DNA of 24,000 nt from positions 66,076 through 90,075 of the forward strand of contig CAZPHO010000001.1 in assembly GCA_964586855.1 (NCBI GenBank). Reading direction: 5' to 3'. Below the pieces are notes generated by a model, which made no database searches, was not told the DNA's origin, and saw only the letters and a program-made list of their open reading frames with translations. The DNA is from an uncultured Candidatus Saccharibacteria bacterium. Lineage in GTDB: Bacteria; Patescibacteriota; Saccharimonadia; Saccharimonadales; Saccharimonadaceae. How positions within the stretch are numbered: the first letter of the stretch is position 1; the number at the start of each line of letters is the position of its first letter. The translations under genes and the position numbers were made by a program. Shown here one piece after another: positions 291 to 12,428 of this stretch.

Positions 291-426
291 TTTACCTCCG
301 ATCTTTTTAACTTACGATTATACTATGACATGGTTATGGTTTTCGTGCATCTAGCTGTTTGCTAAAAAATAGATATTTTAATGACAAAAATACAACACCT
401 GGCAAATTAGAGAAATTTCGATCTGA

Positions 427-454
427 TTGACAGATATTTTTAGCGGTATACAAT
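427..454 (+). promoter_or_regulatory. Sigma70-type promoter for cassette unit 1
   Basis: TTGACA (427-432), 16-nt spacer, TACAAT (449-454). The AGAAAGGA Shine-Dalgarno and ATG at 478 follow. Equivalent TTGAGA/TTGACA ... TAAAAT elements sit at the unit 1/2 and 2/3 junctions (1241-1268, 2134-2160), but with a short ~15-nt spacer. Confidence 0.5.
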
Positions 455-477
455 AAGCTTTAAGAGAAAGGATTTTT

Positions 478-942
478 ATGACGGAAAGCAAGAAGAAATC
501 GGAAGCAAAACGAACAAAGCTCATAAAGGCTATAGGGTTAATATCTTTGAGCGCAATTCTTTTAGGGGCTCTAGCTTTTAGCACGGTGAGGTATAAAGAG
601 CATCAAGCAGAGCAGCAAACTTTAAATGATCTATATGACCCGATGATTGCTGAAGATGTAGCGGATTTGAATCTAGAAAGTCGCTACATAACACCGCGAG
701 GAGAGTTTATGGACAAGCTAATTTACCCCAGCGTTACTAGTTATTATTTAAAGCCTGGCGGTAGAACTGATAAACAGTTGTCACGCAATCTAGAATCTCT
801 GGCTAAGGAATTAGGATGGGAGATAAAAGGACATAATGATGAGTACGAATTAAATTTTTGGGCTGAAAAAGGCGATAATAATTTAGGGGTAACTCTGCAC
901 GCTGACTCAATAGCAATTTCAATTAGAAGCCATAAATGGTGA
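478..942 (+). CDS. Small N-terminally membrane-anchored protein, cassette paralog 1 (unknown family)
   Basis: The ORF has an SD. It has a Lys-rich N-terminus, one TM helix (AIGLISLSAILLGALAFS), the motif LNDLYDPMIAEDVADL shared with the paralogs at 1290 and 2183, and a C-terminal ~90-aa domain ending IAISI. Confidence 0.7.
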   Translation: MTESKKKSEAKRTKLIKAIGLISLSAILLGALAFSTVRYKEHQAEQQTLNDLYDPMIAEDVADLNLESRYITPRGEFMDKLIYPSVTSYYLKPGGRTDKQLSRNLESLAKELGWEIKGHNDEYELNFWAEKGDNNLGVTLHADSIAISIRSHKW

Positions 943-946
943 ACAA

Positions 947-1249
947 ATGAAAAGCAAGCGATTGATATTGTGCTTATTGGTGGTGCTGGCTTCGCACCTC
1001 ATTTTTACAATGGAAGCCAAGGCCCAGGTTTATATCCTTGACAAAAAGCTGAATGTAGCTTTACTTGGTGATTATTTCTCAGCTGGAAATGGTGCAAAAG
1101 ACTATGCAGACATAGATGGATGCTATCGCAGTCCTAATAACTGGGCAAGTAATTTTGTTAAATACCTACGACAACAAGGAGTAGCAGTAAATTATAACAA
1201 TGAAGCCTGTTCAGGCGCAGCTACAAAAAATTGTTTCATCTTGAGATAA
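947..1249 (+). pseudogene. Truncated SGNH/GDSL lipase 5' module (signal peptide + blocks I-II only); nucleophile Ser replaced (GDY)
   Basis: This 100-aa ORF has a signal peptide ending AKA|QV. Block I reads LLGDYFSAGNG (GDS in the other copies) and block II reads ACSGAATKN. The frame then leaves lipase sequence at the duplication junction and stops 6 codons later. Confidence 0.6.
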
Positions 1250-1289
1250 AAAAACAGGGTTTAAAATAAGCTTAAAGAGAAAGGATCTC

Positions 1290-1784
1290 ATGAGCAAGAG
1301 CAAGCAAGAAAACTCAGAAAAGAAAAAAGACACCACCAAAGCAAAAACTACTAAAGCGCCAAAAACAGCCCTGAAGAGAGTTGTGAAAGTGCTGCTAGTA
1401 ATGCTTTTTATTTTTACACTTGTTCAGTTGAGCAAGCACATGGAGGACAATCGAATCCTTAGAGACCTTGATGATCCGATGATAGGAAAAGAAGTCGCGG
1501 GACTCAGGCGCAGCAAAATACTAGCTGTTCCACCATCTTGCTTCGGATCAAGCAAGCCAACTATGGGGCGAGTGAGTGCAGAATACAAAGTCGCTGCTAT
1601 CTCAGAAGCGCAACTGCTAGAAAGCTTAAAAACACAATCAGAGAAGGGTGGCTGGCAAGATGTTCGCTACAGCAAAGAAAACAAGTCAATGTTATTTGCA
1701 GAAAAAAATGAAAAGGGCTTAGTTATCGAAGTTAGCTCGGATCTGGTAAAAATTTCAATAGATAAGCTTTATCGCTGTCCTTAG
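1290..1784 (+). CDS. Small N-terminally membrane-anchored protein, cassette paralog 2
   Basis: The SD is AGAAAGGA. It has a Lys-rich tail, the TM helix VLLVMLFIFTLVQL and the motif LRDLDDPMIGKEVAGL. By my ungapped hand alignment, 63/72 N-terminal residues match paralog 3 but only 46/92 in the C-terminal domain. Two Cys are conserved with paralog 3 (PPSCF, LYRCP). Confidence 0.75.
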   Translation: MSKSKQENSEKKKDTTKAKTTKAPKTALKRVVKVLLVMLFIFTLVQLSKHMEDNRILRDLDDPMIGKEVAGLRRSKILAVPPSCFGSSKPTMGRVSAEYKVAAISEAQLLESLKTQSEKGGWQDVRYSKENKSMLFAEKNEKGLVIEVSSDLVKISIDKLYRCP

Positions 1785-1791
1785 GTTTGAT

Positions 1792-2142
1792 ATGACCATT
1801 TTAATACTAACGAGGATTTTAGAAGTCTTGAAGCAAAAAGGAGTAAAAATATACCTGAGCGTCTTTTTTCTGTCCTTTCTGGTGTCTCCGTGCATTCTTA
1901 GCGATCAGGCTGGCGCGCAAGTGCTTCTGGCTGGCAAAAAAATAAATATAGTACTGCTTGGCGATTCATTTTCTGCAGGTAATGGAGCTGGGAGTTATAC
2001 TGGGATTGATGGGTGCTATCGCAGTCAGAAGAACTGGGCGAGTGGCTTAGTTCGACGCCTAAAAGAAGAAGGAGTGTCGGTAAGTTATCAGAATCGAGCT
2101 TGTTCAGGGGCAACTACAAAAAATTGTTTCATCTTGACATAA
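1792..2142 (+). pseudogene. Truncated SGNH/GDSL lipase 5' module (signal peptide + blocks I-II only)
   Basis: This 116-aa ORF has a signal peptide ending AGA|QV, LLGDSFSAGNG and ACSGATTKN. It then reaches the same junction sequence and a stop. In the mature part, 57/67 residues are identical to the full-length copy. Confidence 0.6.
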
Positions 2143-2182
2143 AGAAACAGGGTATAAAATAAGCTTAAGGAGAAAGGACTTT

Positions 2183-2689
2183 ATGAAAAAGAGCAAGCAA
2201 GAAAACTCAGAAAAGAAAAAAGACGCCACCAAAGCAAAAACTACTAAAGCGCCAAAAACAGCCCTGAAGAGAGTTGCTAAAGTGCTGCTAGTAATACTTT
2301 TTATTTTTACGCTTGTTCAGCTGAGTAAGCGCATGGAGGACAGTAAGATTTTGAGTGATCTTGATGACCCAATGATTGGTGAGGAAGTTGCGGGCTTGTA
2401 TCGTGTTAAGCGATCAGCCTCTCCTCCTTCTTGCTTCATGGCTAACAAACCAGGTTCTGGTTTTGTGGAAGCTACATATAGAAAAGGCGACGTTTCAGAA
2501 AAACAAGCACTAGAAAATATAAAAGTTTCAGCTGAGTATTTTGGCTGGCAGAATGTTCATAGTGATAAAACAGGCGAATTAATATTGCTCGCAGAAAAGA
2601 ATGAGATGAGTATGATTGCTGAGGTTGAGTCGGACCTTGTTAAAATTTTGATTTATAAGTTATATAACTGCCCACTTGACTTGCCGTGA
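2183..2689 (+). CDS. Small N-terminally membrane-anchored protein, cassette paralog 3 (translationally coupled to the full-length lipase gene)
   Basis: The SD is GGAGAAAGGA and the architecture matches paralog 2. Its TGA stop (2687-2689) overlaps the GTG start (2686) of the downstream gene as GTGA. Confidence 0.75.
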   Translation: MKKSKQENSEKKKDATKAKTTKAPKTALKRVAKVLLVILFIFTLVQLSKRMEDSKILSDLDDPMIGEEVAGLYRVKRSASPPSCFMANKPGSGFVEATYRKGDVSEKQALENIKVSAEYFGWQNVHSDKTGELILLAEKNEMSMIAEVESDLVKILIYKLYNCPLDLP

Positions 2690-5157
2690 TTACTATTCTA
2701 GTACGAGTGAGATCTTTACAAACTTTGAGGCATATAGAAGCAGGTGCGTGTCTTTTTGTTATTCTGCCTATACTGTTGTCCTGTTTTGTATTTTATGACC
2801 AAGCTAGCGCGCAAGTGCTTCTACCTGGCAAAAGAATGAATGTCGTGTTGCTTGGCGACTCATTCTCTGCAGGTAATGGGGCTGGTAATTATACTGGAAT
2901 CGATGGATGTTATCGCAGTCAGAACAATTGGGCTAATAGTTTTGTTCAGCGCCTAAAAGAAGAAGGAGTGTCGGTAAGTTATCAGAATCGAGCTTGTTCA
3001 GGTGCAACTACACAAAATCTCTATAAGGATACACAGGCTCTGGTTGATCATAAGACCGCCTCTCTTCATGGAAATGTAACTAGTAAAGACGAAGCAAAAA
3101 GACGAATAGCGGCCATGGATCCTTGCAGGTCACAAAATTCAGACGAGCACTCATACTCAAGATACGTAGTTGATAGTTTAAAATATCAAAATAGCCGTTC
3201 TCAGACACTGGTTTCTTATCGATGTGAACGGATGTTGCGTCTGCAGTCAGACTTTATCGGCCCTGAGACTGATTTTATTCTCCTGACGATTGGTGGTAAT
3301 AATTTTGGATTCAGAAGAATTATAGAAGAATGTTTTTTTTGGAGAAATAGCACTATTTGTAAAGAGGTTATTGGTGGAGCTAGAGCGGAGGCGGAAAGAG
3401 AGTATGGTAGAGAGTTAGAAAGACTGCTTGCATTTATTAAGTCCCGTGGGCTGCGTAGTGATGCAAAAATTGTCCTGCTTGGCTATCCTTTACTGTCGTT
3501 GGATAACAATATTAGCATAGGCGTCGGTTTAAATAGAATTAATACGTCGCAAGCCGTTAGAGAGTTAGGGCAGTATAGTAATGAGATAGCCAAGCGGAGT
3601 ATTAGTGAATTTAATAAAAAACACCCTAATCAGGCTTTGTTTGTTGACGCACAGTCTTGGTTTGCTGGTCACGAACCCGACAATCGCTTCCTTACACGAA
3701 ACCCTAAACGCTGGTTGAATGATTTTTTTGAGCCATTGACTAATATGAATGAATGGTATCACCCAAATAAAACTGGTCACCAGCAATACGCTAACTTACT
3801 GAAGCACAATAGTCTGCTAAAAAATTTTACTAATTCCTATCGTCGATCTCCATCGGATATCGACGTCGTCTTCAACATCGACACAACTGGTTCGATGTGG
3901 ACTTCGATTGAGGCTTTCAAGGCGAGTGCGCTTGCAACCGCTACGATGATTAGCAAGAGCAGCGCTAGTGTTCGTTATGCGCTGGTTGATTTTCGTGATT
4001 TTCCAGGTCGTAGCGGCACGCCCTATGATTATCCTGCCAAGCTGCGCCTAGATTTCACGTCAGATATTAACAAGCTGAAGGACGCCGTCAACAACCTGAG
4101 CACTGGCGATGGCGGTGATGGCCCAGAGTCGATGTATTCAGGTCTGATTACTGGCATCAATCTCAACTGGCGGCCGGCCGTGCATAAAATCATTATCACC
4201 TTGAGCGATAATGGGCCGCTTGATCCCGAGCCTGTGACTGGCTATACCAAAAAAGCAGTCATCGAAAAGGCCTTCAAGGTTGATCCAGCTTCACTCTATT
4301 TTATCCATGAATCACCAGTTCGTGATGAATATGTTGATTCGATGGCTGAGGAAAGTGGCGGTAGCGTGATTGTCAATGATAATGAATCGATCTCAATTGT
4401 GTCGGATGCGATAAGGAAAATCATCAACGAGACGCTCGATAGGCCATTCGCTTGGATTAACGGTCCATATCTGGCCAAAATAGGCGAGGCGATTACGATC
4501 GACGGTGGCGGTTCTTACGCCAAAGCTGGACAAATTGTTAAATATGAATGGGATTGGGAAAGCGACGGCATCTACGATAATACGACTACGACTTACAACA
4601 TCACTCGCTCATGGAATAAAGAGCTCGACGGGCTGATGACTCTACGGGTAACCGATTCAAATGGTCTGGTCAATACCGCTAACACCTGGCTGACGGTTTC
4701 GATTGATGGCGACACTGTCAATCAAGAGATCGATAATTGCCCACTAGTTGCCAATCAGTCGCAATCGGACCATGATGTTGATGGTATTGGTAATGAGTGC
4801 GATGAGGACTATATGCCGTATATTTTGGGTGAATTGCAAAAAGCTCAAGCCAAGCAAAATGAAATAGATCGCCAGGCTTTAATCCAGATGTTGCGCGGCC
4901 GGACCAAGGTCAGGTCGCTAAGAGACGTGGCTGAAGTGGCTTTGATATTGGCGGAGGTGTCGATTGTTGAGCAGCTAATCAAGGATAATCAGAGCTTGCC
5001 AGAAGATATGATGGCAGTTATAAATCAGCCAGCAGCAGTCGATTCCACTCCAGCTGAGCGAAAAAACAACTGCAGCCTCTATCTAAAAATAGTTGCTGGT
5101 GTCGGGGCGGCAGTCTTCATTGGTGCTGGCTTCTGGCGCTATCGCAAGCGAATTTAA
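2686..5157 (+). CDS. Multidomain surface protein: signal peptide, SGNH/GDSL lipase, vWA, PKD-like, thrombospondin type-3 repeat, helical stalk, C-terminal TM anchor
   Basis: The 823-aa protein has all four SGNH blocks: GDSFSAGNG (Ser59, nt 2860-2862), ACSGATT, LLTIGGNNFGF and WYHPNKTGH. KIVLLGYP and FAGHE also match, from memory, the Streptomyces rimosus-type secreted lipase family. The vWA domain is ~aa 391-580 (DVVFNIDTTGSM MIDAS-like, GDGGDGPES). The PKD-like fold is ~aa 590-673 (ITIDGGGS..YEWDW..DG...LRVTDSNG). The TSP3 Ca-binding repeat is DNCPLVANQSQSDHDVDGIGNECDED. The C-terminus is LYLKIVAGVGAAVFIGAGFW + RYRKRI. Confidence 0.85.
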   Translation: MITILVRVRSLQTLRHIEAGACLFVILPILLSCFVFYDQASAQVLLPGKRMNVVLLGDSFSAGNGAGNYTGIDGCYRSQNNWANSFVQRLKEEGVSVSYQNRACSGATTQNLYKDTQALVDHKTASLHGNVTSKDEAKRRIAAMDPCRSQNSDEHSYSRYVVDSLKYQNSRSQTLVSYRCERMLRLQSDFIGPETDFILLTIGGNNFGFRRIIEECFFWRNSTICKEVIGGARAEAEREYGRELERLLAFIKSRGLRSDAKIVLLGYPLLSLDNNISIGVGLNRINTSQAVRELGQYSNEIAKRSISEFNKKHPNQALFVDAQSWFAGHEPDNRFLTRNPKRWLNDFFEPLTNMNEWYHPNKTGHQQYANLLKHNSLLKNFTNSYRRSPSDIDVVFNIDTTGSMWTSIEAFKASALATATMISKSSASVRYALVDFRDFPGRSGTPYDYPAKLRLDFTSDINKLKDAVNNLSTGDGGDGPESMYSGLITGINLNWRPAVHKIIITLSDNGPLDPEPVTGYTKKAVIEKAFKVDPASLYFIHESPVRDEYVDSMAEESGGSVIVNDNESISIVSDAIRKIINETLDRPFAWINGPYLAKIGEAITIDGGGSYAKAGQIVKYEWDWESDGIYDNTTTTYNITRSWNKELDGLMTLRVTDSNGLVNTANTWLTVSIDGDTVNQEIDNCPLVANQSQSDHDVDGIGNECDEDYMPYILGELQKAQAKQNEIDRQALIQMLRGRTKVRSLRDVAEVALILAEVSIVEQLIKDNQSLPEDMMAVINQPAAVDSTPAERKNNCSLYLKIVAGVGAAVFIGAGFWRYRKRI

Positions 5158-5200
5158 CAACATCTTTTGCACAACGTTTGGGTTGATTTGGCTTATGGTT

Positions 5201-5209
5201 TGTTAAAAT
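5201..5209 (+). promoter_or_regulatory. Extended -10 element upstream of tdk
   Basis: TGtTAAAAT lies at 5201-5209, 33 nt upstream of the tdk ATG. AGGAGG at 5230-5235 is the SD. I found no convincing -35. Confidence 0.4.
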
Positions 5210-5242
5210 ATGAAGTAGCAAATCCAAACAGGAGGTGAAAAA

Positions 5243-5833
5243 ATGGCTAAGCTGTACTTTAAATATGGAGCGATGGGTAGTTCAAAAACGGCACAAGCTT
5301 TGATTGCCAAATTTAATTACGAAGAGGGTGGCAATAAAGTTTGGTTGATTAAGCCGAGTGTTGATGTTCGTGATGGCAGCAATAAGCTACGTTCGCGAGT
5401 TGGCCTAGAGGCGGACGTTCAGGCAGTGCCACCGACCGCTGACTTGTTAAAAATATTTCAAAAAAATAAGCCAAAGCCTGACGTAGTGATTGTCGACGAA
5501 GCTCAGTTTTTGACTGAACAACAAGTCGAGCAGCTAAGACAAATCGTCGATTGCGAACGGACGTCGGTGATGTGCTACGGTCTGAAAACTGATTTTCAGA
5601 ATAAGCTTTTTCCAGGCAGCAAGCGACTGTTTGAATTGAGTGAATCAATCAGCGAAATCAAAAGCGTCTGCGCTTGCGGCACCAAGGCTTCGGTCAACGC
5701 TCGCCTTGACGGAAAAGGTAATGTTTTGACTGAAGGCGAGCAGGTGGTGATTGGCGGCAACGAAGCCTACCAAGCGATGTGTTATCAGTGCTATGATGCT
5801 GCTGTTCGTCGTCTCCACATCAAGGGCCGCTGA
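5243..5833 (+). CDS. tdk: Thymidine kinase
   Basis: The P-loop is GAMGSSKT. VDEAQFL, CYGLKTDF and the zinc-ribbon cysteines (CACG ... CYQCY) are present. At 196 aa the length is typical. Confidence 0.95.
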   Translation: MAKLYFKYGAMGSSKTAQALIAKFNYEEGGNKVWLIKPSVDVRDGSNKLRSRVGLEADVQAVPPTADLLKIFQKNKPKPDVVIVDEAQFLTEQQVEQLRQIVDCERTSVMCYGLKTDFQNKLFPGSKRLFELSESISEIKSVCACGTKASVNARLDGKGNVLTEGEQVVIGGNEAYQAMCYQCYDAAVRRLHIKGR

Positions 5834-5845
5834 AGCGGCTCTTTT
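5823..5845 (+). terminator. Rho-independent terminator of tdk (hairpin spans the stop codon)
   Basis: AGGGCCGC-tgaa-GCGGCTCT forms an 8-bp stem with one G-U pair, followed by TTTT (5842-5845). Confidence 0.55.
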
Positions 5846-5870
5846 AGCACTTGATTGCTTCGACTGCTAA
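5844..5870 (+). promoter_or_regulatory. CIRCE operator (HrcA binding site)
   Basis: TTAGCACTT-N9-GACTGCTAA compared with the consensus TTAGCACTC-N9-GAGTGCTAA. It matches 8/9 in each arm and overlaps the hrcA promoter. Confidence 0.85.
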
Positions 5871-5883
5871 AAAATGCTATAAT
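5855..5883 (+). promoter_or_regulatory. hrcA-grpE promoter
   Basis: TTGCTT (5855-5860), 17-nt spacer, TGcTATAAT (5875-5883). The -10 ends 6 nt before the ATG at 5890. Confidence 0.6.
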
Positions 5884-5889
5884 CGGAGC

Positions 5890-6621
5890 ATGAAATTAAG
5901 TGATCGTCAGCTTGAAATTTTGGTAGCTATTGTTGAGCAATATTCAGAGGTGGCAGCTCCTGTTGGCAGTGTGATGCTGGCTAAATTATTTAATGTTTCA
6001 AGCGCGACTATTAGACTAGATATGGCTAAATTAGAAAACCTTGGCTTAGTTGAACAACCGCACACTTCGGCTGGTCGGATTCCGACTGATAGAGGCTATC
6101 GAGCTTATGTTAATTATCTTAATCAAAAGCGCCAATCAGAAATCCATCCAGTGGTCGTCCAGCATCGAGCCAATCGAGCTCTTGAGCGTAAACTGAGTGC
6201 AACTTCTGGTAAAACTAGTGCTATGATCCGAGTGGCAGTGCGGATGCTCTCAGAGTTGACTGATAATTTGGGCTTTGCGACGATTGGTGATCAAATTTAC
6301 ACTTGTGGTTTGACTAATTTGCTCGATCGGCCCGAACTTGATGATCGTCAAAGCGTGTTGGCTTTATCTAATCTAATTGACAATCTCGAGCCCTGGCTGT
6401 TAGAAGCCAAGCCGGTTGAGCGGGTGAGTGTATTCATTGGCTCGGAAAATCCAATCGGCAAGGCTTCTGGTGCGACATTGGTTATCAGCCGCTTTCGCTC
6501 GCCCTATAGCGATAAAAGCTACATTGGCGTGTTGGGGCCAACTCGTCAGAGTTACGCTCAGGTGATGCAATTGGTTGAACAGACGGGCATGACTTTAGAA
6601 GAAGTGTTGAGCGAGGCTTGA
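5890..6621 (+). CDS. hrcA: Heat-inducible transcription repressor HrcA
   Basis: MKLSDRQLEILVAIVEQY...PVGS...SSATIRLDMAKLENLGLVEQPHTSAGRIPTDRGYR is the canonical HrcA winged-helix N-terminus. I prefer ATG 5890 to the ORF-track TTG 5851, which lies inside CIRCE and the promoter. Confidence 0.9.
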   Translation: MKLSDRQLEILVAIVEQYSEVAAPVGSVMLAKLFNVSSATIRLDMAKLENLGLVEQPHTSAGRIPTDRGYRAYVNYLNQKRQSEIHPVVVQHRANRALERKLSATSGKTSAMIRVAVRMLSELTDNLGFATIGDQIYTCGLTNLLDRPELDDRQSVLALSNLIDNLEPWLLEAKPVERVSVFIGSENPIGKASGATLVISRFRSPYSDKSYIGVLGPTRQSYAQVMQLVEQTGMTLEEVLSEA

Positions 6622-6628
6622 GTGGCAA

Positions 6629-6814
6629 ATGACCAACAAATTAAAATCGCTGATCGCACTGGTTCTGACTATTTTTTCGATGACTCGTTTGATGCGAGCT
6701 GCTAACTTTATGATTATGGGCGGCGAAGGCGAGCTGTTGCGAGTGATTTTTTATGGTATATTGTTTGTTGGCTCGCTGATTACTTTTGCCTATTATTTTA
6801 AAGCTAAGGATTGA
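6629..6814 (+). CDS. Small hypothetical membrane protein (two predicted TM helices) between hrcA and grpE
   Basis: This 61-aa ORF fills the hrcA-grpE gap exactly. It has two hydrophobic stretches (LIALVLTIFSM, VIFYGILFVGSLITFAYYF). I recognise no homology. Confidence 0.4.
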   Translation: MTNKLKSLIALVLTIFSMTRLMRAANFMIMGGEGELLRVIFYGILFVGSLITFAYYFKAKD

Positions 6815-6822
6815 AGGAAATT

Positions 6823-7299
6823 ATGAAAAAAGATTCTAAAATTAATAAACAATTAGAAAAATTGCAAACTGAGAATGCAGAGCTGCTGGCAGATTTGCAG
6901 CGGACTCGGGCTGATTTTGAGAATTTTCGTAAAAATGTTGATGCTGAAAAAGATCGCTTAAGTTTGGCAACCAAACAAGCTATGATTTTGAAATTATTGC
7001 CAGTAATTGACGGGATTGACCAAGCTACTAATCATCTGCCAGCTGAGCTTGAGGATAATTCGTGGGCAACTGGAGTTTTGAAACTAAATCAAAAACTAGT
7101 TGATGACTTGTCGCGTATCGGTGTACGAAAAATCAAGGCTGAAATTGGCCAAGAATTCAACCCTGATCAGCACTCAGCACTGTTGATAGACGAAGAGACT
7201 GAGGGCGAAGCGGAGGTGATTGCCGAAGTGTTGCAGCCGGGCTATTGGTATGATGATCAAGTCATGCGTCCGGCATCGGTCAAAGTTGCTCGTCAATAA
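6823..7299 (+). CDS. grpE: Nucleotide exchange factor GrpE
   Basis: It has an N-terminal coiled-coil, RTRADFENFRK, LLPVIDGIDQA and FNPDQHSA. I prefer ATG 6823, preceded by AAGGA (6814-6818). The ORF-track TTG at 6811 is the alternative. Confidence 0.9.
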   Translation: MKKDSKINKQLEKLQTENAELLADLQRTRADFENFRKNVDAEKDRLSLATKQAMILKLLPVIDGIDQATNHLPAELEDNSWATGVLKLNQKLVDDLSRIGVRKIKAEIGQEFNPDQHSALLIDEETEGEAEVIAEVLQPGYWYDDQVMRPASVKVARQ

Positions 7300-7345
7300 G
7301 ATCCTTGACTTTTGCACCCAAACAGCGTAAAATTTGTCTAGATTT

Positions 7346-7422
7346 GGGACCATAGCTCAGCTGGTTAGAGCACCTGCCTTTTAAGCAGGGTGTCCCGGGT
7401 TCAAGTCCCGGTGGTCCCTCCA
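7346..7422 (+). tRNA. tRNA-Lys (anticodon UUU, 7380-7382), CCA encoded
   Basis: I folded the cloverleaf by hand. The acceptor is GGGACCA/TGGTCCC, the D arm GCTC..GAGC, the anticodon stem CCTGC/GCAGG with loop CTTTTAA, and the T arm CCGGG-TTCAAGT-CCCGG. The 3' end is a T discriminator plus CCA. Confidence 0.95.
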
Positions 7423-7694: not shown

Positions 7695-8147
7695 TTATCG
7701 TTTCTTTTTGCGGCGAGTCGAGTCTGATCGGCCAATCTTAGGTCGCAAAGTCTTCTTTTTCTTGCTAATCACAACAGCAACAGCTCCCGCAATCAGTGCT
7801 AGTCCGAGCCCGACCCCGACTCTAACCAGCAAAGCAGTAAGAGGCGACTGTTTGTTGACGGTTTTATCTAAGTTGAACCGATTGGTGCTTTTGATTTGCT
7901 CAAAGTTGACCTCATAGTTAATCTCAGCGATTTTTTCCGGTGAGTGGTCAAAATTTTCCGTGCCAATCTCACCATATTCAATTTCAATTGGAATCACTCC
8001 TTCAGAATATACAATCTCTCCGTTAGCTTTTTCAATTCGGAGATGTAGTTGGTTGAAATCAACTTTTTGTGGTTGAATTGTGATTGATGCTTGATTGTTC
8101 TTGAAGCTGACTTCGCTAGCTTCAGTTACGATAGCGTATTTTTGCAA
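7695..8147 (-). CDS. C-terminal portion of a surface-anchored protein (no signal peptide of its own; C-terminal TM + poly-basic tail)
   Basis: The ORF-track start is TTG with no SD. The C-terminus is SPLTALLVRVGVGLGLALIAGAVAVVISKKKK...RRKKKR. The frame stays open upstream through 8243 and matches the frame of the 8244-8633 ORF (see findings). Confidence 0.55.
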   Translation of the reverse strand: MQKYAIVTEASEVSFKNNQASITIQPQKVDFNQLHLRIEKANGEIVYSEGVIPIEIEYGEIGTENFDHSPEKIAEINYEVNFEQIKSTNRFNLDKTVNKQSPLTALLVRVGVGLGLALIAGAVAVVISKKKKTLRPKIGRSDSTRRKKKR

Positions 8148-8243
8148 ATCACTTACTCTGTAGTCAACAATCGAAGATCGTACAGGATCTTCCCAGTAGC
8201 CAGGCCTTAAATCCTTATTTTTTTCAGATAAGAGACTTATTCT

Positions 8244-8633
8244 TTAGCAGTCACTAATTTGGTCAATCTCTATCTCTGATAATTTAGGGATGATCTTACT
8301 GTCTGGAATTTTAGCATATTGTTTGCCAAAGGTCGTGCAGCTAATCCATGGCCTATCGGCAAGAGCATATGGTTTTCGTCCGTAAGTTTCATTTTCGTTG
8401 TAAAAAATATAAGCTTGAAGCGAGCTTAACAGCTCTATTTTCTTGACATCAGGTGGTTTAACGTTTTTGATAGTAAAAGTAGCTTTTTCTGGAGTGACGG
8501 CTCGTCTAGCCTGTGGTATCGACACACTGATCATTAACGCTTGCTCTACTCGCAATGATTGATTGGCAAAAAACAAGCCAGTAATGAGCGCTGTCACGAC
8601 GACTACTTTTCTAAAATATTTTTTCCGGGTCAT
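8244..8633 (-). CDS. N-terminal portion of a secreted/surface protein (signal anchor), ending at an in-frame TAA
   Basis: ATG at 8633 is preceded by AAGGAG. The N-terminus MTRKKYFRKVVVVTALITGLFFANQS is signal-peptide-like. The region is AT-rich. Confidence 0.6.
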   Translation of the reverse strand: MTRKKYFRKVVVVTALITGLFFANQSLRVEQALMISVSIPQARRAVTPEKATFTIKNVKPPDVKKIELLSSLQAYIFYNENETYGRKPYALADRPWISCTTFGKQYAKIPDSKIIPKLSEIEIDQISDC

Positions 8634-8805: not shown

Positions 8806-11151
8806 ATGTTAGATCAGAAAACCAAAGACAATTTGCAGAAATTTGTGCGGGCGGCTAACTATTTAGCGGTGGCGCAGATGTTTTTAAAAGATAATTATTT
8901 ATTAAAGCAGCCACTAGAATTTGAACATATCAAGCCAAGAATTCTTGGGCACTGGGGGTCATGTCCAGGGATTAGTGTGGCTTATGCTCATTTTTTGCGA
9001 CTGTTGAAAGATCATCCCGAACAGCAAAATAATATTTTTATTTTGGGGCCAGGGCATGGTTTTCCAGGGTTGCAAGCGGACTTGTTTCTTGAGGGAGCGC
9101 TGGCGGAGGTTGATTCTCAAGCGACTCGTGATGAGGCGGGGATTGGATATATTTGTAAGCAGTTTTCTTGGCCGTATGGCTTCCCATCGCATGCTAGTCC
9201 GTATTCTCCCGGCGTGATTTCTGAAGGCGGCGAGCTCGGTTATAGTTTGGCGACGGCGTTTGGGGCGGTGCTCGATCAGCCAGATATGCTGGTGGCGTGT
9301 TTGGTTGGCGATGGCGAGGCCGAGACTGGCGCCTTGTCGGGTGCGTGGCACCTCAATAAGCTAGTTGCTAGTCCAGAAAATGGTTTTGTTTTGCCAATTT
9401 TGCACCTCAATGGCTATAAAATCACTGGCCCAACAGTTTTTGGTCGGATGAGTGACAAAGAATTGTTTGATTATTTTAGTGGCTTGCGCTATGAGCCGCA
9501 TATTGTTGATTATAATTCGCCAAACGACGACGCTAAATTAGCGGCTGTTTTTGATCAGGTTTACGCCAAAATTGAGCAAATTAAAGCCGGTGAAGCCAAA
9601 GACCAGCGGCTGCCGATGATTGTCTTGAAGTCACCGAAAGGTATGACTGGACCCGAAAAGTTCAAAGGCAAGAAGTTAGTTGGTAATAATTTATCTCACC
9701 AAGTGATTTTTGATCATGCGATGGATGATCAGCAGCATTTGCAAGAATTAGAAAAATGGTTGCGTAGTTATCGGCTGGAAGAATTAATGGCTGGCGATAA
9801 ATTTGGGGATTGGTTGGAAGAATTTCTTCCGCCAACTAGGTCTCGACCGGGCAATAACCAGATGGCTTTGACTAAAAAACTTGATGGCAGCTCGATTGAT
9901 AAATTAAGCTTACCGAAAGTGGCTGACTTTGAGCAGCGACTGAACCGAGTCGGTGAGGTTAAATCATTGCCACTGCATTTAATGGGTGATTATTTAGAGC
10001 AGGTTTTTAAATTAAATCATGAAAAGCATAATTTTCGATTTTTCTCACCTGATGAAACGACTTCAAATAAGCTGGGCGCAATTTACAATCAAACCACTAA
10101 AGCTTGGGCGGCCGAAATCAAGTCTTGGGACGGGCCGAGTGGGCGAGATGGCAAATCAATGGAGATTTTGAGCGAGCAAAGCCTGCAGGGAATGATGCAG
10201 GGCTACCAGATTACTGGTCGACACGGTGTGTTGACCAGCTATGAGGCATTTGCGGCGGTGATCAATTCGATGCTGATTCAATATGCGAAGTTTATCCAGC
10301 AGAGTCGAGATGTGACATGGCGCGATCCGATTCCGGCACCAGTTTATCTTTTGACTTCGACTGGCTGGCGACAAGATCATAACGGTTTTTCGCACCAAAC
10401 CTCGAGTTTTGTTGATGAAGTTTTGCGTCGCCAAAATAATTTAGGCACAGTGCTGTTTCCAGCGGACGATAATTTAGGAGTGGTGGCGCTTGACTGGGGT
10501 TTGCGACAAAAAGATCAGATTGTGGCAATTGTTTCGGGCAAAACCGAAGAGCCACGCTGGCGTTCGTTGCTTGAGGCCCAGGTTGACTTTGAGCAAGCCG
10601 CTAGTATTTGGGAATTTGCTAGCGACGATCAGCCAGATTTGGTTTTCGCAGCAGTGGGCGATTATATGGCTCGCGAGAGTTTGTATGCGATGCAACTACT
10701 GCGTCAGGTTATCCCAAAGATTAAAATGCGATTCGTTTATGTGTCAGCCTTGACCAGCGGAGCGATTGGCACGACCGATAATCAATTATCGATTGAGAAA
10801 TTTGACCAAATTTTTACTCCGAATCAGCCAATTATTTTCAATTTTCATGGCTATCCAGAGAGCTTGAAGGCGATTTTGTTTAACTATTTGACAACCGATC
10901 GGGCGAGTGTCCATGGCTACATCGAGCAGGGTTCGACTACGACACCGTTTGATATGATGGTCCGTAACCAAGCTTCTCGTTATCACCTGATGTTTGATGC
11001 ATTGGCTAAATTGGCAGAAAAAGGCAAAATAACCGCACAACAACAAATTAGTTTAACCGCTAAAATCCAGCAAAAACTTGACGCTAACACTAAGCATATC
11101 CAGAAATACGGTAAGGATTTGTCAGAAATTACTGACCAAGTTTGGCAGTAG
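8806..11151 (+). CDS. xfp: Xylulose-5-phosphate/fructose-6-phosphate phosphoketolase
   Basis: The 781-aa protein carries the motifs RAANYL, LGHWGSCPG, GPGHG, EGGELGYS and GDGEAETG, plus the C-terminal PFDM region. Confidence 0.97.
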   Translation: MLDQKTKDNLQKFVRAANYLAVAQMFLKDNYLLKQPLEFEHIKPRILGHWGSCPGISVAYAHFLRLLKDHPEQQNNIFILGPGHGFPGLQADLFLEGALAEVDSQATRDEAGIGYICKQFSWPYGFPSHASPYSPGVISEGGELGYSLATAFGAVLDQPDMLVACLVGDGEAETGALSGAWHLNKLVASPENGFVLPILHLNGYKITGPTVFGRMSDKELFDYFSGLRYEPHIVDYNSPNDDAKLAAVFDQVYAKIEQIKAGEAKDQRLPMIVLKSPKGMTGPEKFKGKKLVGNNLSHQVIFDHAMDDQQHLQELEKWLRSYRLEELMAGDKFGDWLEEFLPPTRSRPGNNQMALTKKLDGSSIDKLSLPKVADFEQRLNRVGEVKSLPLHLMGDYLEQVFKLNHEKHNFRFFSPDETTSNKLGAIYNQTTKAWAAEIKSWDGPSGRDGKSMEILSEQSLQGMMQGYQITGRHGVLTSYEAFAAVINSMLIQYAKFIQQSRDVTWRDPIPAPVYLLTSTGWRQDHNGFSHQTSSFVDEVLRRQNNLGTVLFPADDNLGVVALDWGLRQKDQIVAIVSGKTEEPRWRSLLEAQVDFEQAASIWEFASDDQPDLVFAAVGDYMARESLYAMQLLRQVIPKIKMRFVYVSALTSGAIGTTDNQLSIEKFDQIFTPNQPIIFNFHGYPESLKAILFNYLTTDRASVHGYIEQGSTTTPFDMMVRNQASRYHLMFDALAKLAEKGKITAQQQISLTAKIQQKLDANTKHIQKYGKDLSEITDQVWQ

Positions 11152-11203
11152 AGAATTTTGCTTAATTTTGGTTTTATATCAAGCGGGTTGGTAGGTTTGT
11201 GCG

Positions 11204-11212
11204 TGCTATAAT
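11204..11212 (+). promoter_or_regulatory. Extended -10 element upstream of ackA
   Basis: TGcTATAAT lies at 11204-11212. It is followed by a 31-nt leader with AGGAG (11233-11237), 6 nt before ATG 11244. Confidence 0.5.
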
Positions 11213-11243
11213 TAATCTGTAATTAAAGAAGTAGGAGTAATTA

Positions 11244-12428
11244 ATGGATAGAATTGTTTTGGCAACCAATCCTGGTTCGGCCAGTCGAAAATATGCTTTG
11301 TATCGAGGCGAAAAATGCTTAGCGACGCTTCATTTTGAATATGTTAATGATCGGGCTTATTGTGAAATTTCAGTTGCTGGTGGTGAAAAAAAACCAGTTG
11401 AACTGCAGATTGATAATATCGCCGAAGCGGCTAGTGAGTGTGAACGAATTTTGCGTGAGCAGGGCGTGTTAAGCGACGACCAGCAAATTGATGCAGTGGC
11501 GGCACGGTTGGTGGCACCGAGTCGAGATTTTCAAAAAGATCAATTAATAACGGATGAAATCATTGTTAAGTTGGAGAAAATTCAGTCCAAAGCCCCACTC
11601 CACACAGGTGTAAATTTAGCAGAAATCAAATACTTCAAGCAAGTTTATCCTGACTTGCCAGTGATTGCAGTCTCGGATTCGTCGTTTCATGCTACCAAGC
11701 CGATGAAAGCTTTTCGCTATGCGATTAGTGCTGACCTGCAGGACAAACTAGATATTGGACGGTTTGGTTATCACGGAATTTCAGTCAGTTCAATTGTTGA
11801 AACCATGAAGCGTGAAGGGATTTTGCCTGAAAAACTGATTGTCTGTCATTTGGGTGGTGGTGCTAGCATTACCGCGGTTCAAAATGGCGAAAGCATCGAT
11901 AATTCGATGGGCTATTCGCCACTTGAGGGCTTGATGATGGCGACTCGCTCGGGTGATATTGACGTTTCGGTGGCATTGATGGTCAAGGAAGAGCTGGGTT
12001 TGTCGGATGATGAATTAGAGCAATATCTGAACAAGCAAGCTGGTTTTTTGGGTTTGTCGGAATTATCAGATGATATGCGGTTGGTTTTGGAAGCTGAACA
12101 AAAAGGCGACGAGAAGGCTAAGGTCGCCAATCAAACCTATATTTATCGCCTAGCAAAAACTTTAGGCGGACTGGTTACTGGAATGAACGGTGTCGATGCG
12201 GTTGTCTTCACAGCGACGGTTGGAGAGCGAGGAGCAGATGTGCGCGAGAATATTTGCCAATATTTAGCTTATCTTGGATTTGAGCTTGACTTAGATAAAA
12301 ATAATAATGTCGCTAAGGTCGATAATGTTGTAAATATTGCTACAGAAAATTCAAAACCACTTTACATGATCCGAACTGATGAGCAGACCGAAATGGCACG
12401 TCGCGCCAATGTTGTTCTAGCTGCCTAA
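11244..12428 (+). CDS. ackA: Acetate kinase
   Basis: NPGSASRKYALY, GYHGIS, HLGGGASIT, SMGYSPLEGLMMATRSGDID and VFTATVGERG match the ASKHA acetate/propionate kinase signatures. Confidence 0.95.
   Translation: MDRIVLATNPGSASRKYALYRGEKCLATLHFEYVNDRAYCEISVAGGEKKPVELQIDNIAEAASECERILREQGVLSDDQQIDAVAARLVAPSRDFQKDQLITDEIIVKLEKIQSKAPLHTGVNLAEIKYFKQVYPDLPVIAVSDSSFHATKPMKAFRYAISADLQDKLDIGRFGYHGISVSSIVETMKREGILPEKLIVCHLGGGASITAVQNGESIDNSMGYSPLEGLMMATRSGDIDVSVALMVKEELGLSDDELEQYLNKQAGFLGLSELSDDMRLVLEAEQKGDEKAKVANQTYIYRLAKTLGGLVTGMNGVDAVVFTATVGERGADVRENICQYLAYLGFELDLDKNNNVAKVDNVVNIATENSKPLYMIRTDEQTEMARRANVVLAA

Follow-up and report, generated by a model that had tools for sequence, protein, structure and literature searches.

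A three-unit array of small membrane-protein genes and lipase 5′ ends upstream of a surface lipase gene: probable partial tandem duplication of a two-gene module

Orphan CdiA-CT/Rhs-CT toxin-immunity modules are reportedly found downstream of the main gene at contact-dependent growth inhibition (CDI) and Rhs loci, as Poole et al. are said to have described in 2011. Such orphans are 3′ fragments encoding C-terminal toxin domains, generally without translation initiation signals of their own, and their immunity genes follow them. Lipases and phospholipases have partners of other kinds: Lif is a helical foldase of ~340 amino acids (aa) encoded downstream of an α/β-hydrolase lipase, and Tli proteins are periplasmic proteins or lipoproteins paired with effectors of type VI secretion systems (T6SS) in Tle-Tli pairs. 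The immunity genes esaG and tipC, found beside toxin genes of type VII secretion systems (T7SS), form tandem, non-identical paralogues that recombine via conserved blocks (Garrett et al., 2022, PMC9484751). Here we describe an array that shares features with each of these arrangements. It lies in a stretch of DNA of 24,000 nucleotides (nt; hereafter the window) on contig CAZPHO010000001.1, positions 66,076 to 90,075, listed as deriving from an uncultured Candidatus Saccharibacteria bacterium. The array holds three genes for a small membrane-anchored protein, here termed S, each followed by the 5′ end of a gene for an SGNH lipase. We consider it likely that this array arose by lineage-specific partial tandem duplication of a conserved two-gene module, followed by recombination.

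A repeat search and alignment resolve window positions 412-3018 into three head-to-tail units that recur every 893-894 nt. The three-way alignment of the units is colinear across ~900 nt and, together with the open reading frames (ORFs), bears out an earlier note on this DNA, made from the letters alone, that had described three successive units of one layout. Two repeat families recur in all three units: one of 222 nt at 1010-1231, 1903-2124 and 2797-3018 (spacing 893/894 nt), and one of 32 nt at 445-476, 1258-1289 and 2151-2182, which spans a -10-like hexamer, AAGCTT and the ribosome-binding site GAGAAAGGA. Each unit runs from an upstream region with the ribosome-binding site, closing with AAGCTT(T)AARGAGAAAGGA, through the S gene to a coupled SGNH-lipase 5′ end immediately downstream of it. 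The two genes are separated by 4 nt in unit 1 and 7 nt in unit 2, and overlap by 4 nt in unit 3; because they lie within ~7 nt of each other or overlap, S and lipase look translationally coupled. Only in unit 3 does the lipase continue to full length (L3, 823 aa), the other two being stubs (L1′ and L2′; Table 1). An atypical base composition of the array was considered and rejected, as its GC content (0.37-0.43) is ordinary in comparison with the surrounding sequence (0.38-0.47).

The stubs L1′ and L2′ diverge from the lipase at the identical nucleotide, after ACSGA(A/T)TKN. Beyond this point both read ...ACAAAAAATTGTTTCATCTTGA(G/C)ATAA, also given as ...AAAAATTGTTTCATCTTGA(G/C)ATAA, where L3 reads ACACAAAATCTCTATAAGGAT. 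This post-break sequence aligns with the upstream region of unit 1 from ~412 onwards, weakly over 412-444 and at 84-88% identity over 445-476. Since the breakpoint is common to the two stubs and is followed by a copy of the unit's own upstream region, the array is read as a partial tandem duplication, and the break as the head-to-tail duplication junction that the earlier note had proposed. An AAAT-type microhomology is present at the join, where the lipase reads ACACAAAAT↓CTC and the upstream region GAGAAAT↓TTCG; it is weak evidence after such large divergence. The note had also held that each junction regenerates a -35 element; this element was instead carried along, since the duplicated segment begins upstream of it. 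The promoter-like hexamers named in the note are present in all three units, but only the unit-1 site (427-454) passes a consensus scan, with a score of 11/12; the unit-2 and unit-3 sites, with their 15-nt spacers, are not called. The region as a whole holds 15 promoter-like sites compared with 10.2 ± 3.3 in shuffles, an excess that is not clear. The scan for terminator-like sites found none at either junction, and one long operon is therefore at least as likely as three promoters.

Table 1. Coordinates of the array features in the window
Feature	Position	Strand	Description
Unit-1 upstream region, left repeat end	412..477	+	TTGACA 427-432, 16 nt, TACAAT 449-454; ribosome-binding site GAGAAAGGA 464-472
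S1, 154 aa	478..942	+	Lys-rich N-terminal tail, one transmembrane helix, ~105-aa domain predicted to face outward
L1′, 100-aa lipase 5′ relic	947..1249	+	Signal peptide, block I (GDY), block II, five junction-encoded residues, stop
Junction 1/2	1223..1289	+	Upstream-region copy: TTGAGA 1241, 15-nt spacer, TAAAAT 1262, ribosome-binding site
S2, 164-aa partner paralogue	1290..1784	+	ORF; S-family hidden Markov model (HMM) E = 1.9e-41
Conserved S N-terminal block	1296..1383	+	1296-1331 = 2189-2224 (36 nt identical); 1333-1383 = 2226-2276 (51 nt identical)
Unit-2 variable core (unit-3 counterpart 2336-2784)	1443..1890	+	S ectodomain and lipase signal peptide
L2′, 116-aa lipase 5′ relic	1792..2142	+	Signal peptide, intact GDS block I, block II; breakpoint same as L1′
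Identical 53-nt block, mature lipase N-terminus	2056..2108	+	= 2950-3002
Junction 2/3	2116..2182	+	TTGACA 2134, 15-nt spacer, TAAAAT 2155, ribosome-binding site
S3, 168-aa partner paralogue	2183..2689	+	Stop codon overlaps lipase GTG start (GTGA)
L3, 823-aa complete surface protein	2686..5157	+	ORF; Pfam domains

The closest described behaviour is that of the tandem immunity-gene paralogues esaG and tipC. As in those arrays, a string of non-identical small partner genes stands beside the gene of a secreted enzyme, high-identity blocks surround a variable core, and recombination between paralogues would explain both the mosaicism and the gain or loss of copies. Non-identical S copies, conserved blocks and inter-paralogue recombination are all found here, the recombinant contigs described below being suggestive only. 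In contrast to esaG and tipC, the copies lie upstream and number only three, and a 5′ piece of the enzyme gene was duplicated along with each. Nor is the enzyme a T7SS or T6SS substrate, being an SGNH-VWA-PKD protein of the Sec type with a membrane anchor; S has no sequence similarity to EsaG, TipC or Tli-type proteins, and an immunity pairing is here putative.

The analogy to polymorphic-toxin loci, of which the earlier note had seen a mirror image, largely fails. As at the CDI and Rhs orphans, fragments of the main gene and small partner genes are stacked beside the full gene, and a homology stretch shared with the main gene (83-92% identity over 1919-2115 versus 2813-3009, including the 53-nt identical block) permits recombination. 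This stretch is the only one of four defining features that the array shares. Its fragments are conserved N-terminal ends rather than variable C-terminal toxin fragments, and as 5′ fragments they have a start codon and signal peptide of their own. The small gene precedes the fragment, both here and in every related locus, whereas the immunity gene of an orphan module lies downstream. What varies between units is the partner ectodomain and the signal peptide, not the catalytic domain. Silent-cassette antigenic variation of the pilS/vls type is excluded, as start codon (ATG), ribosome-binding site and promoter-like sequence are all present in each unit. As is generally known of Lif operons and Tle-Tli pairs, an outer-face partner is there encoded beside a lipase or phospholipase in one operon, as it would be here; unlike Lif and Tli, S has a ~110-aa β-rich domain and matches neither of them significantly in sequence or fold. 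The array is most simply labelled a partial tandem gene duplication with subsequent unequal crossing-over and gene conversion, which calls for no new mechanism. Such events likewise produce head-to-tail units with a single breakpoint that sets gene interior beside upstream region, an identity peak at the junctions, deletion-type recombinants, and confinement to one lineage. Nothing essential separates the array from them; what is unusual is how old and diverged the copies are, and that the stub frames have stayed open.

The existence of S and lipase as a pair is not restricted to the array. The lipase architecture is widespread, with 468 homologues that include named Actinobacteria (Marmoricola, Kineococcus and Cellulomonas). 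Most of the relatives stem from metagenome assemblies, human-associated or environmental, and in all 11 distinct related loci, as well as in a paralogous pair in the same genome, one S gene lies directly upstream of one lipase gene. This arrangement was seen in L008, in L009/L010, in L034-L037 (hhalign 99.8% to the S profile) and in nine metagenome loci in which S and the lipase N-module were sought by HMM (L048-L056). In Marmoricola sp. (L038:2558-2968), an ORF of 136 aa lies 33 nt upstream of a homologous lipase-VWA-PKD gene and matches the S profile with an hhalign probability of 92.8% (E = 4e-7), the DPM, GW and A-x-K motifs included. These comparisons indicate that the S-lipase pairing crosses phyla, and S and lipase thus form an old, conserved and previously undescribed two-gene module. 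Among the relatives examined, the three-unit array is limited to this lineage. A conserved cassette logic, as the earlier note had envisaged it, is contradicted by the single S and single lipase in each of the 11 loci and in the in-genome pair. Other searches yielded little: a scan of genome contigs with the full lipase gave only PKD-domain matches in unrelated phyla, a first metagenome scan with the S alignment gave no match, and exact look-ups of the 823-aa lipase and of its paralogue P0028 returned no record, probably owing to other start codons chosen by gene callers. The literature search on this lipase family in Saccharibacteria found nothing specific.

The paralogous pair of the same genome is located ~6.4 kb upstream of window position 1 (L024:1685-4162) and encodes S0 (155 aa) and LB (654 aa). 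LB has SGNH, PKD-like and TSP3 domains and no VWA domain. Between this operon and the window lie an ABC transporter, a DUF1097 gene and AllG/AllF-like genes.

The partner protein S belongs to a small family of its own. S1 matches the family HMM with E = 6.6e-42, and S1, S2 and S3 all carry the family features, namely a basic N-terminal tail, one transmembrane helix, and the DPM...LLGM, GW and A-x-K motifs. No Pfam or NCBIfam model matches S, and among 1.84 billion cluster representatives, searched exhaustively by HMM, only 23 members were found. S diverges fast, with 16-30% identity between species. The proportion of non-synonymous differences (pN) is below that of synonymous differences (pS) in every S comparison, which, like the confident ectodomain model described next, supports S as a real family. 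S2 and S3 are 90% identical at the amino-acid level in the tail and transmembrane helix, compared with 56% in the ectodomain. The AlphaFold2 model of S3 (pLDDT 81 over the full length and 92 over the ectodomain) predicts a helix at residues 25-59 and a C-terminal domain of ~110 aa with seven elements (β-β-α-β-β-β-β). The ectodomain is predicted to face outward because of the positive-inside rule, and the anchored lipase lies on that side too. Foldseek found no significant fold match for S in the PDB (best E = 5e-3 and 2.5e-2, TM at most 0.43). A weak, recurrent theme of Mog1/PsbP/DUF1795-like proteins (LppA, EagT6, SciW, DcrB, MTC28 and TM1622; E at least 5e-3, TM at most 0.43) offers a hint to the fold of S and not an assignment.

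In its location, coupling, divergence and copy gain, S would resemble the partners or immunity proteins of membrane-active enzymes. Because of this location and coupling, the rapid divergence and the expansion of paralogues, we tentatively suggest that S may bind the lipase domain at the membrane's outer face, where it would either inhibit the enzyme or shield the cell's own membrane in an immunity-like way, or else act in maturation. The real payload of the array is probably the three S paralogues. A reservoir of partner variants, which the earlier note had offered as its second choice, is the best fit to three S paralogues that are intact and strongly diverged.

The complete lipase L3 is a modular surface protein, in which a signal peptide is followed by an SGNH lipase domain (~aa 53-371), a VWA domain (~394-508), a PKD domain (~586-667), a TSP3 repeat (~673-693) and a C-terminal transmembrane anchor, after which comes RYRKRI. 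The Pfam match to PF00657 covers aa 53-371 and profile positions 1-207 of 208. The solved structures nearest to its catalytic domain are all Streptomyces enzymes: the lipase of Streptomyces rimosus (5MAL, E = 1e-11), phospholipase A1 of S. albidoflavus (4HYQ, E = 2e-9) and the esterase of S. scabies (1ESC, E = 1e-4). Block III (TIGGNN, ~residue 200) and block V (WYHPN, ~residue 360) align with 5MAL. The catalytic domain matches those of the Streptomyces enzymes, whereas L3 has an insertion of ~80 aa between blocks II and III and adds the VWA, PKD and TSP3 domains, the membrane anchor and the S partner gene. In one contig from sample DRR832011 (L046, window 3562-6618, three mismatches to the window), the lipase is called as two ORFs of 74 and 420 aa, which may reflect a nonsense variant or a sequencing error.

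The stubs retain much of the family sequence. Block I reads LLGDSFSAGNG in both L3 and L2′; in L1′ it is GDY and the nucleophile Ser is gone, a change from GDS that the earlier note had already seen. Only in L3 do blocks III and V stand in one polypeptide with block I, as L1′ and L2′ end at ~aa 100-116, and the stubs cannot act as hydrolases because blocks III and V are absent. L2′ weakly matches Pfam Lipase_GDSL_2 (E = 8.8e-6), and its conservation at family-conserved columns equals that of L3. Of the 20 family columns with at least 90% conservation among 108 homologues, four are mismatched in L1′, three of these mismatches being unique to L1′ and including the nucleophile Ser. The lipase module of the stubs is 62-84% identical to L3 at the amino-acid level (62% for unit 1 and 84% for unit 2). 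The differences concentrate on variable columns, at 16/27 variable compared with 10/41 conserved columns in L1′ and 9/27 compared with 2/41 in L2′, and the family motifs DGCYRS, NWA and ACSGA are retained. Compared with L3, the ratio of non-synonymous to synonymous substitution rates (dN/dS) is 0.18 for L1′, at a synonymous divergence (dS) of 1.37, and 0.16 for L2′, at a dS of 0.47. Derivation of L1′ from the paralogue LB was rejected, as at the nucleotide level L1′ (67% identity to LB) is no nearer to LB than L2′ (80%) and L3 (70%) are.

Units 2 and 3 are mosaic. Between them, the junction together with the S tail and transmembrane helix (1203-1440) is 88-98% identical at the nucleotide level, with a dS of 0.13 for the S N-terminus. 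The S ectodomain (1443-~1784) is 50-60% identical and synonymously saturated (pS 0.77); the lipase signal peptide (~1792-1890) is likewise 50-60% identical, with a dS of ~1.05. Identity rises again to 83-92% in the mature lipase module (1919-2115), where dS is 0.47. Recombination is needed because dS differs so much between adjacent segments, from 0.13 to saturation within 900 nt, and its cause could be gene conversion between units or the import of divergent alleles. The suggestion of the earlier note that units 2 and 3 are recent or homogenised is too simple for such a mosaic. Unit 1, which the note had called old, is strongly diverged, but age alone does not set it apart from units 2 and 3, as its S is nearer to S0.

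Allelic patch replacement occurs in this population. In contig L039 and five similar places, an in-frame replacement of ~205 nt at window 3231-3436 (L039:259-464), within the SGNH domain and just after block III, is only ~50-60% identical to the window. On its left (2973-3230) a single base differs from the window, and on its right (3437-7391) identity is 99.97%. The paralogue LB was rejected as the source of this patch, since it gave no BLAST match. Several contigs begin at 3437-3445, as expected of a graph branch.

Other contigs join units in non-canonical ways. In L004 (Logan ERR14129420) and L005 (a SPAdes-style NODE contig of ENA ERZ25038384), unit 2 passes into the full lipase body, with the crossover in the 53-nt identical block of Table 1. 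In L028 and L033 (Logan SRR8925824 and SRR8925789), unit 1 and junction 1/2 pass into S3, with the crossover in the 36-nt identical block. Each of the four suggests a two-unit array, that is, a recombinant with one unit deleted. Canonical junctions are found in the same studies: L006 shares a strain single-nucleotide polymorphism with L004 and L005, and L002 belongs to the SRR89257xx/89258xx accession series that also holds L028 and L033. The recombinant contigs have ~1x coverage and the shared blocks of 36 and 53 nt exceed k = 31, and they may therefore be graph chimeras; the chances that real copy-number heterogeneity lies behind them are about even.

Taken together, we favour the following history of the array. 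The ancestral module would have encoded a type-II membrane protein S, with its N-terminus inside, one helix and a β-rich domain of ~110 aa outside, and directly downstream an SGNH lipase/phospholipase-VWA-PKD-TSP3 protein, secreted through Sec and anchored by its C-terminus. A segment from ~65 nt upstream of S to about lipase codon 110 would then have been duplicated head-to-tail, its end visible in the breakpoint of the stubs, perhaps by joining at the AAAT microhomology. Growth to three units by unequal homologous crossing-over would account for the shared breakpoint and for the identity peak around the junctions. Later patchwise recombination or gene conversion, the patches coming from sources that we can only infer, would have produced the mosaic of units 2 and 3. 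Unequal crossing-over via the conserved blocks may still delete units in the population, as the recombinant contigs suggest. The outcome would be three intact, diverged S paralogues and one complete lipase, with the two lipase 5′ stubs as by-products.

Several observations weigh against this history. The dN/dS of the stubs relative to L3 (0.16-0.24) is unlike that of freely decaying pseudogenes, and their signal peptides, with the AxA↓QV cleavage motif at their ends, persist despite saturated synonymous divergence. In a simple, substitution-only simulation, L1′ would have kept its frame free of stop codons with a probability of 0.06 to 0.009, and L2′ with one of 0.12 to 0.02. The stub products or their translation may thus be selected. 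In addition, the S1 ectodomain is closer to S0 (51% identity) than to S2 and S3 (26-29%), so that unit 1 is not simply an older copy, and the early history of the array appears to involve more than one old lineage. The open stub frames may reflect selection for translation that carries expression downstream in one long operon, divergence that was imported from, or exchanged with, functional alleles, or a role of the peptides themselves.

At its most ambitious, the array could be read as a selected diversity generator in an epibiotic, lipid-scavenging bacterium. Specificity or immunity towards a surface phospholipase that attacks membranes would be determined by the S ectodomains, the stubs would purposely retain open frames and be secreted or at least translated, and S variants and lipase alleles would be continually reshuffled through the conserved blocks and imported patches like that at 3231-3436. 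We regard this as rather unlikely; if true, the array would be an N-terminal, upstream counterpart of the toxin/immunity orphan arrays.

Slightly less probable still is a programmed or selected cassette system, in which upstream donor units would switch the partner, the signal peptide and the 5′ lipase segment on a single lipase body. Conserved blocks do flank a variable core, the stub frames do stay open, and L004 and L005 show exactly the fusion that would be predicted, unit 2 joined to the lipase body, and L028 and L033 join unit 1 and its junction to S3, although at ~1x coverage these contigs could be chimeras. Patescibacteria are described as naturally competent and as integrating DNA through homologous recombination (PMC11665869), which is relevant only if the source organism is a patescibacterium. 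Against such a system, the array is found in this lineage only, and recombination between direct repeats, which only deletes or expands, is irreversible. The repeat search found no inverted repeats linking the units, and the scan of the array ORFs revealed no recognisable recombinase gene, the flanking ORFs not having been scanned systematically. No S copy is silent, since each has its own start codon and ribosome-binding site. Furthermore, switching would change little of the enzyme: units 2 and 3 share 84% amino-acid identity in the mature 5′ lipase module, the main difference between their modules is a signal peptide that is presumably cleaved, and fusion of the unit-1 module, which is without the catalytic Ser, to the lipase body would kill the enzyme. 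Evidence for programmed switching was not found. The earlier note had seen in the array a substrate for recombinational switching; the recombination footprints and the apparent fusions of the predicted type in L004 and L005 agree with that, whereas a dedicated cassette system does not follow.

Equally improbable, in our view, is that the stubs are functional in their own right, with L1′ and L2′ giving rise to peptides of ~70 aa that would be secreted and held under purifying selection, for instance as decoys or as ligands of S or of a host receptor. The low dN/dS, the intact signal peptides and cleavage motifs, the retained family motifs and the improbability of open frames under neutral decay all speak for it. 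However, a third of an SGNH α/β fold is unlikely to fold alone, three near-invariant residues have been lost in L1′, and no such stubs exist in any relative examined. A low dN/dS can also follow recombinational import from functional alleles, of which the L039 patch provides an example, and open frames are also explicable by the avoidance of polarity within an operon.

It is very unlikely that the array is the remnant of three once-complete tandem S and lipase operons, two of which lost their 3′ parts independently by simple decay. A complete paralogous operon, S0 and LB, does exist nearby, and S1 is related to S0; yet L1′ and L2′ are cut at the identical nucleotide and followed by the same upstream-region-like sequence, which independent deletions would not yield.

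The array itself is real, which the earlier note had named as a point to be checked. Contigs from other samples, independently assembled, match the window at 99.7-99.9% identity (four independent assemblies: ENA ERZ4258480 and ERZ25038560, Logan SRR8925745 and SRR27197529) and together span both junctions and all three variable cores. Junction 1/2 is reproduced in L003, L004, L005 and L006, and junction 2/3 in L001, L002 and L006. Many other short-read contigs end at window 1325, 2973 or 3437, which is the expected de Bruijn graph effect of repeats and co-existing variants. All contigs anchored in tdk end within the repeat (2973 or 3437), and the S gene preceding the full lipase elsewhere is not visible in them. 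These breaks at the repeat, and the differing number of units among some contigs, lend next to no credibility to an assembly artefact from a collapsed or expanded repeat, given that both junctions and the variable cores recur across samples and assemblers and that the units, at 50-66% identity in parts, are too diverged to be collapsed copies of one another.

The remaining window offers some observations in its own right. An ORF for a hydrophobic protein of 61 aa (6629-6814) lies between ORFs assigned to HrcA and GrpE by Pfam; it has no Pfam match itself and is called as a gene in all eight contigs from other samples that span the interval. On the minus strand at 7695-8633, two small ORFs (150 and 129 aa) with one hydrophobic segment each adjoin tRNA-Lys (7346-7422). 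At 8806-12428, a phosphoketolase (781 aa) adjoins a putative acetate kinase ORF; such an adjacency has been described for a soil saccharibacterium (PMC6031116), and a patescibacterial or saccharibacterial origin of the DNA is plausible.

The analysis of this array has exposed a conserved two-gene module, S and an SGNH lipase-VWA-PKD protein, that is common to relatives and at least one actinobacterium. The array itself provides a clean natural case of how partial duplication, unequal crossing-over and patchwise recombination build a small repertoire of paralogues. Saccharibacteria cannot make lipids, and how they acquire them is an open question (PMC11665869). If the source organism is a saccharibacterium, as the neighbouring phosphoketolase and putative acetate kinase genes may suggest, a surface lipase or phospholipase-adhesin with a diversifying, duplicated partner would be a candidate for attacking host membranes while protecting its own.

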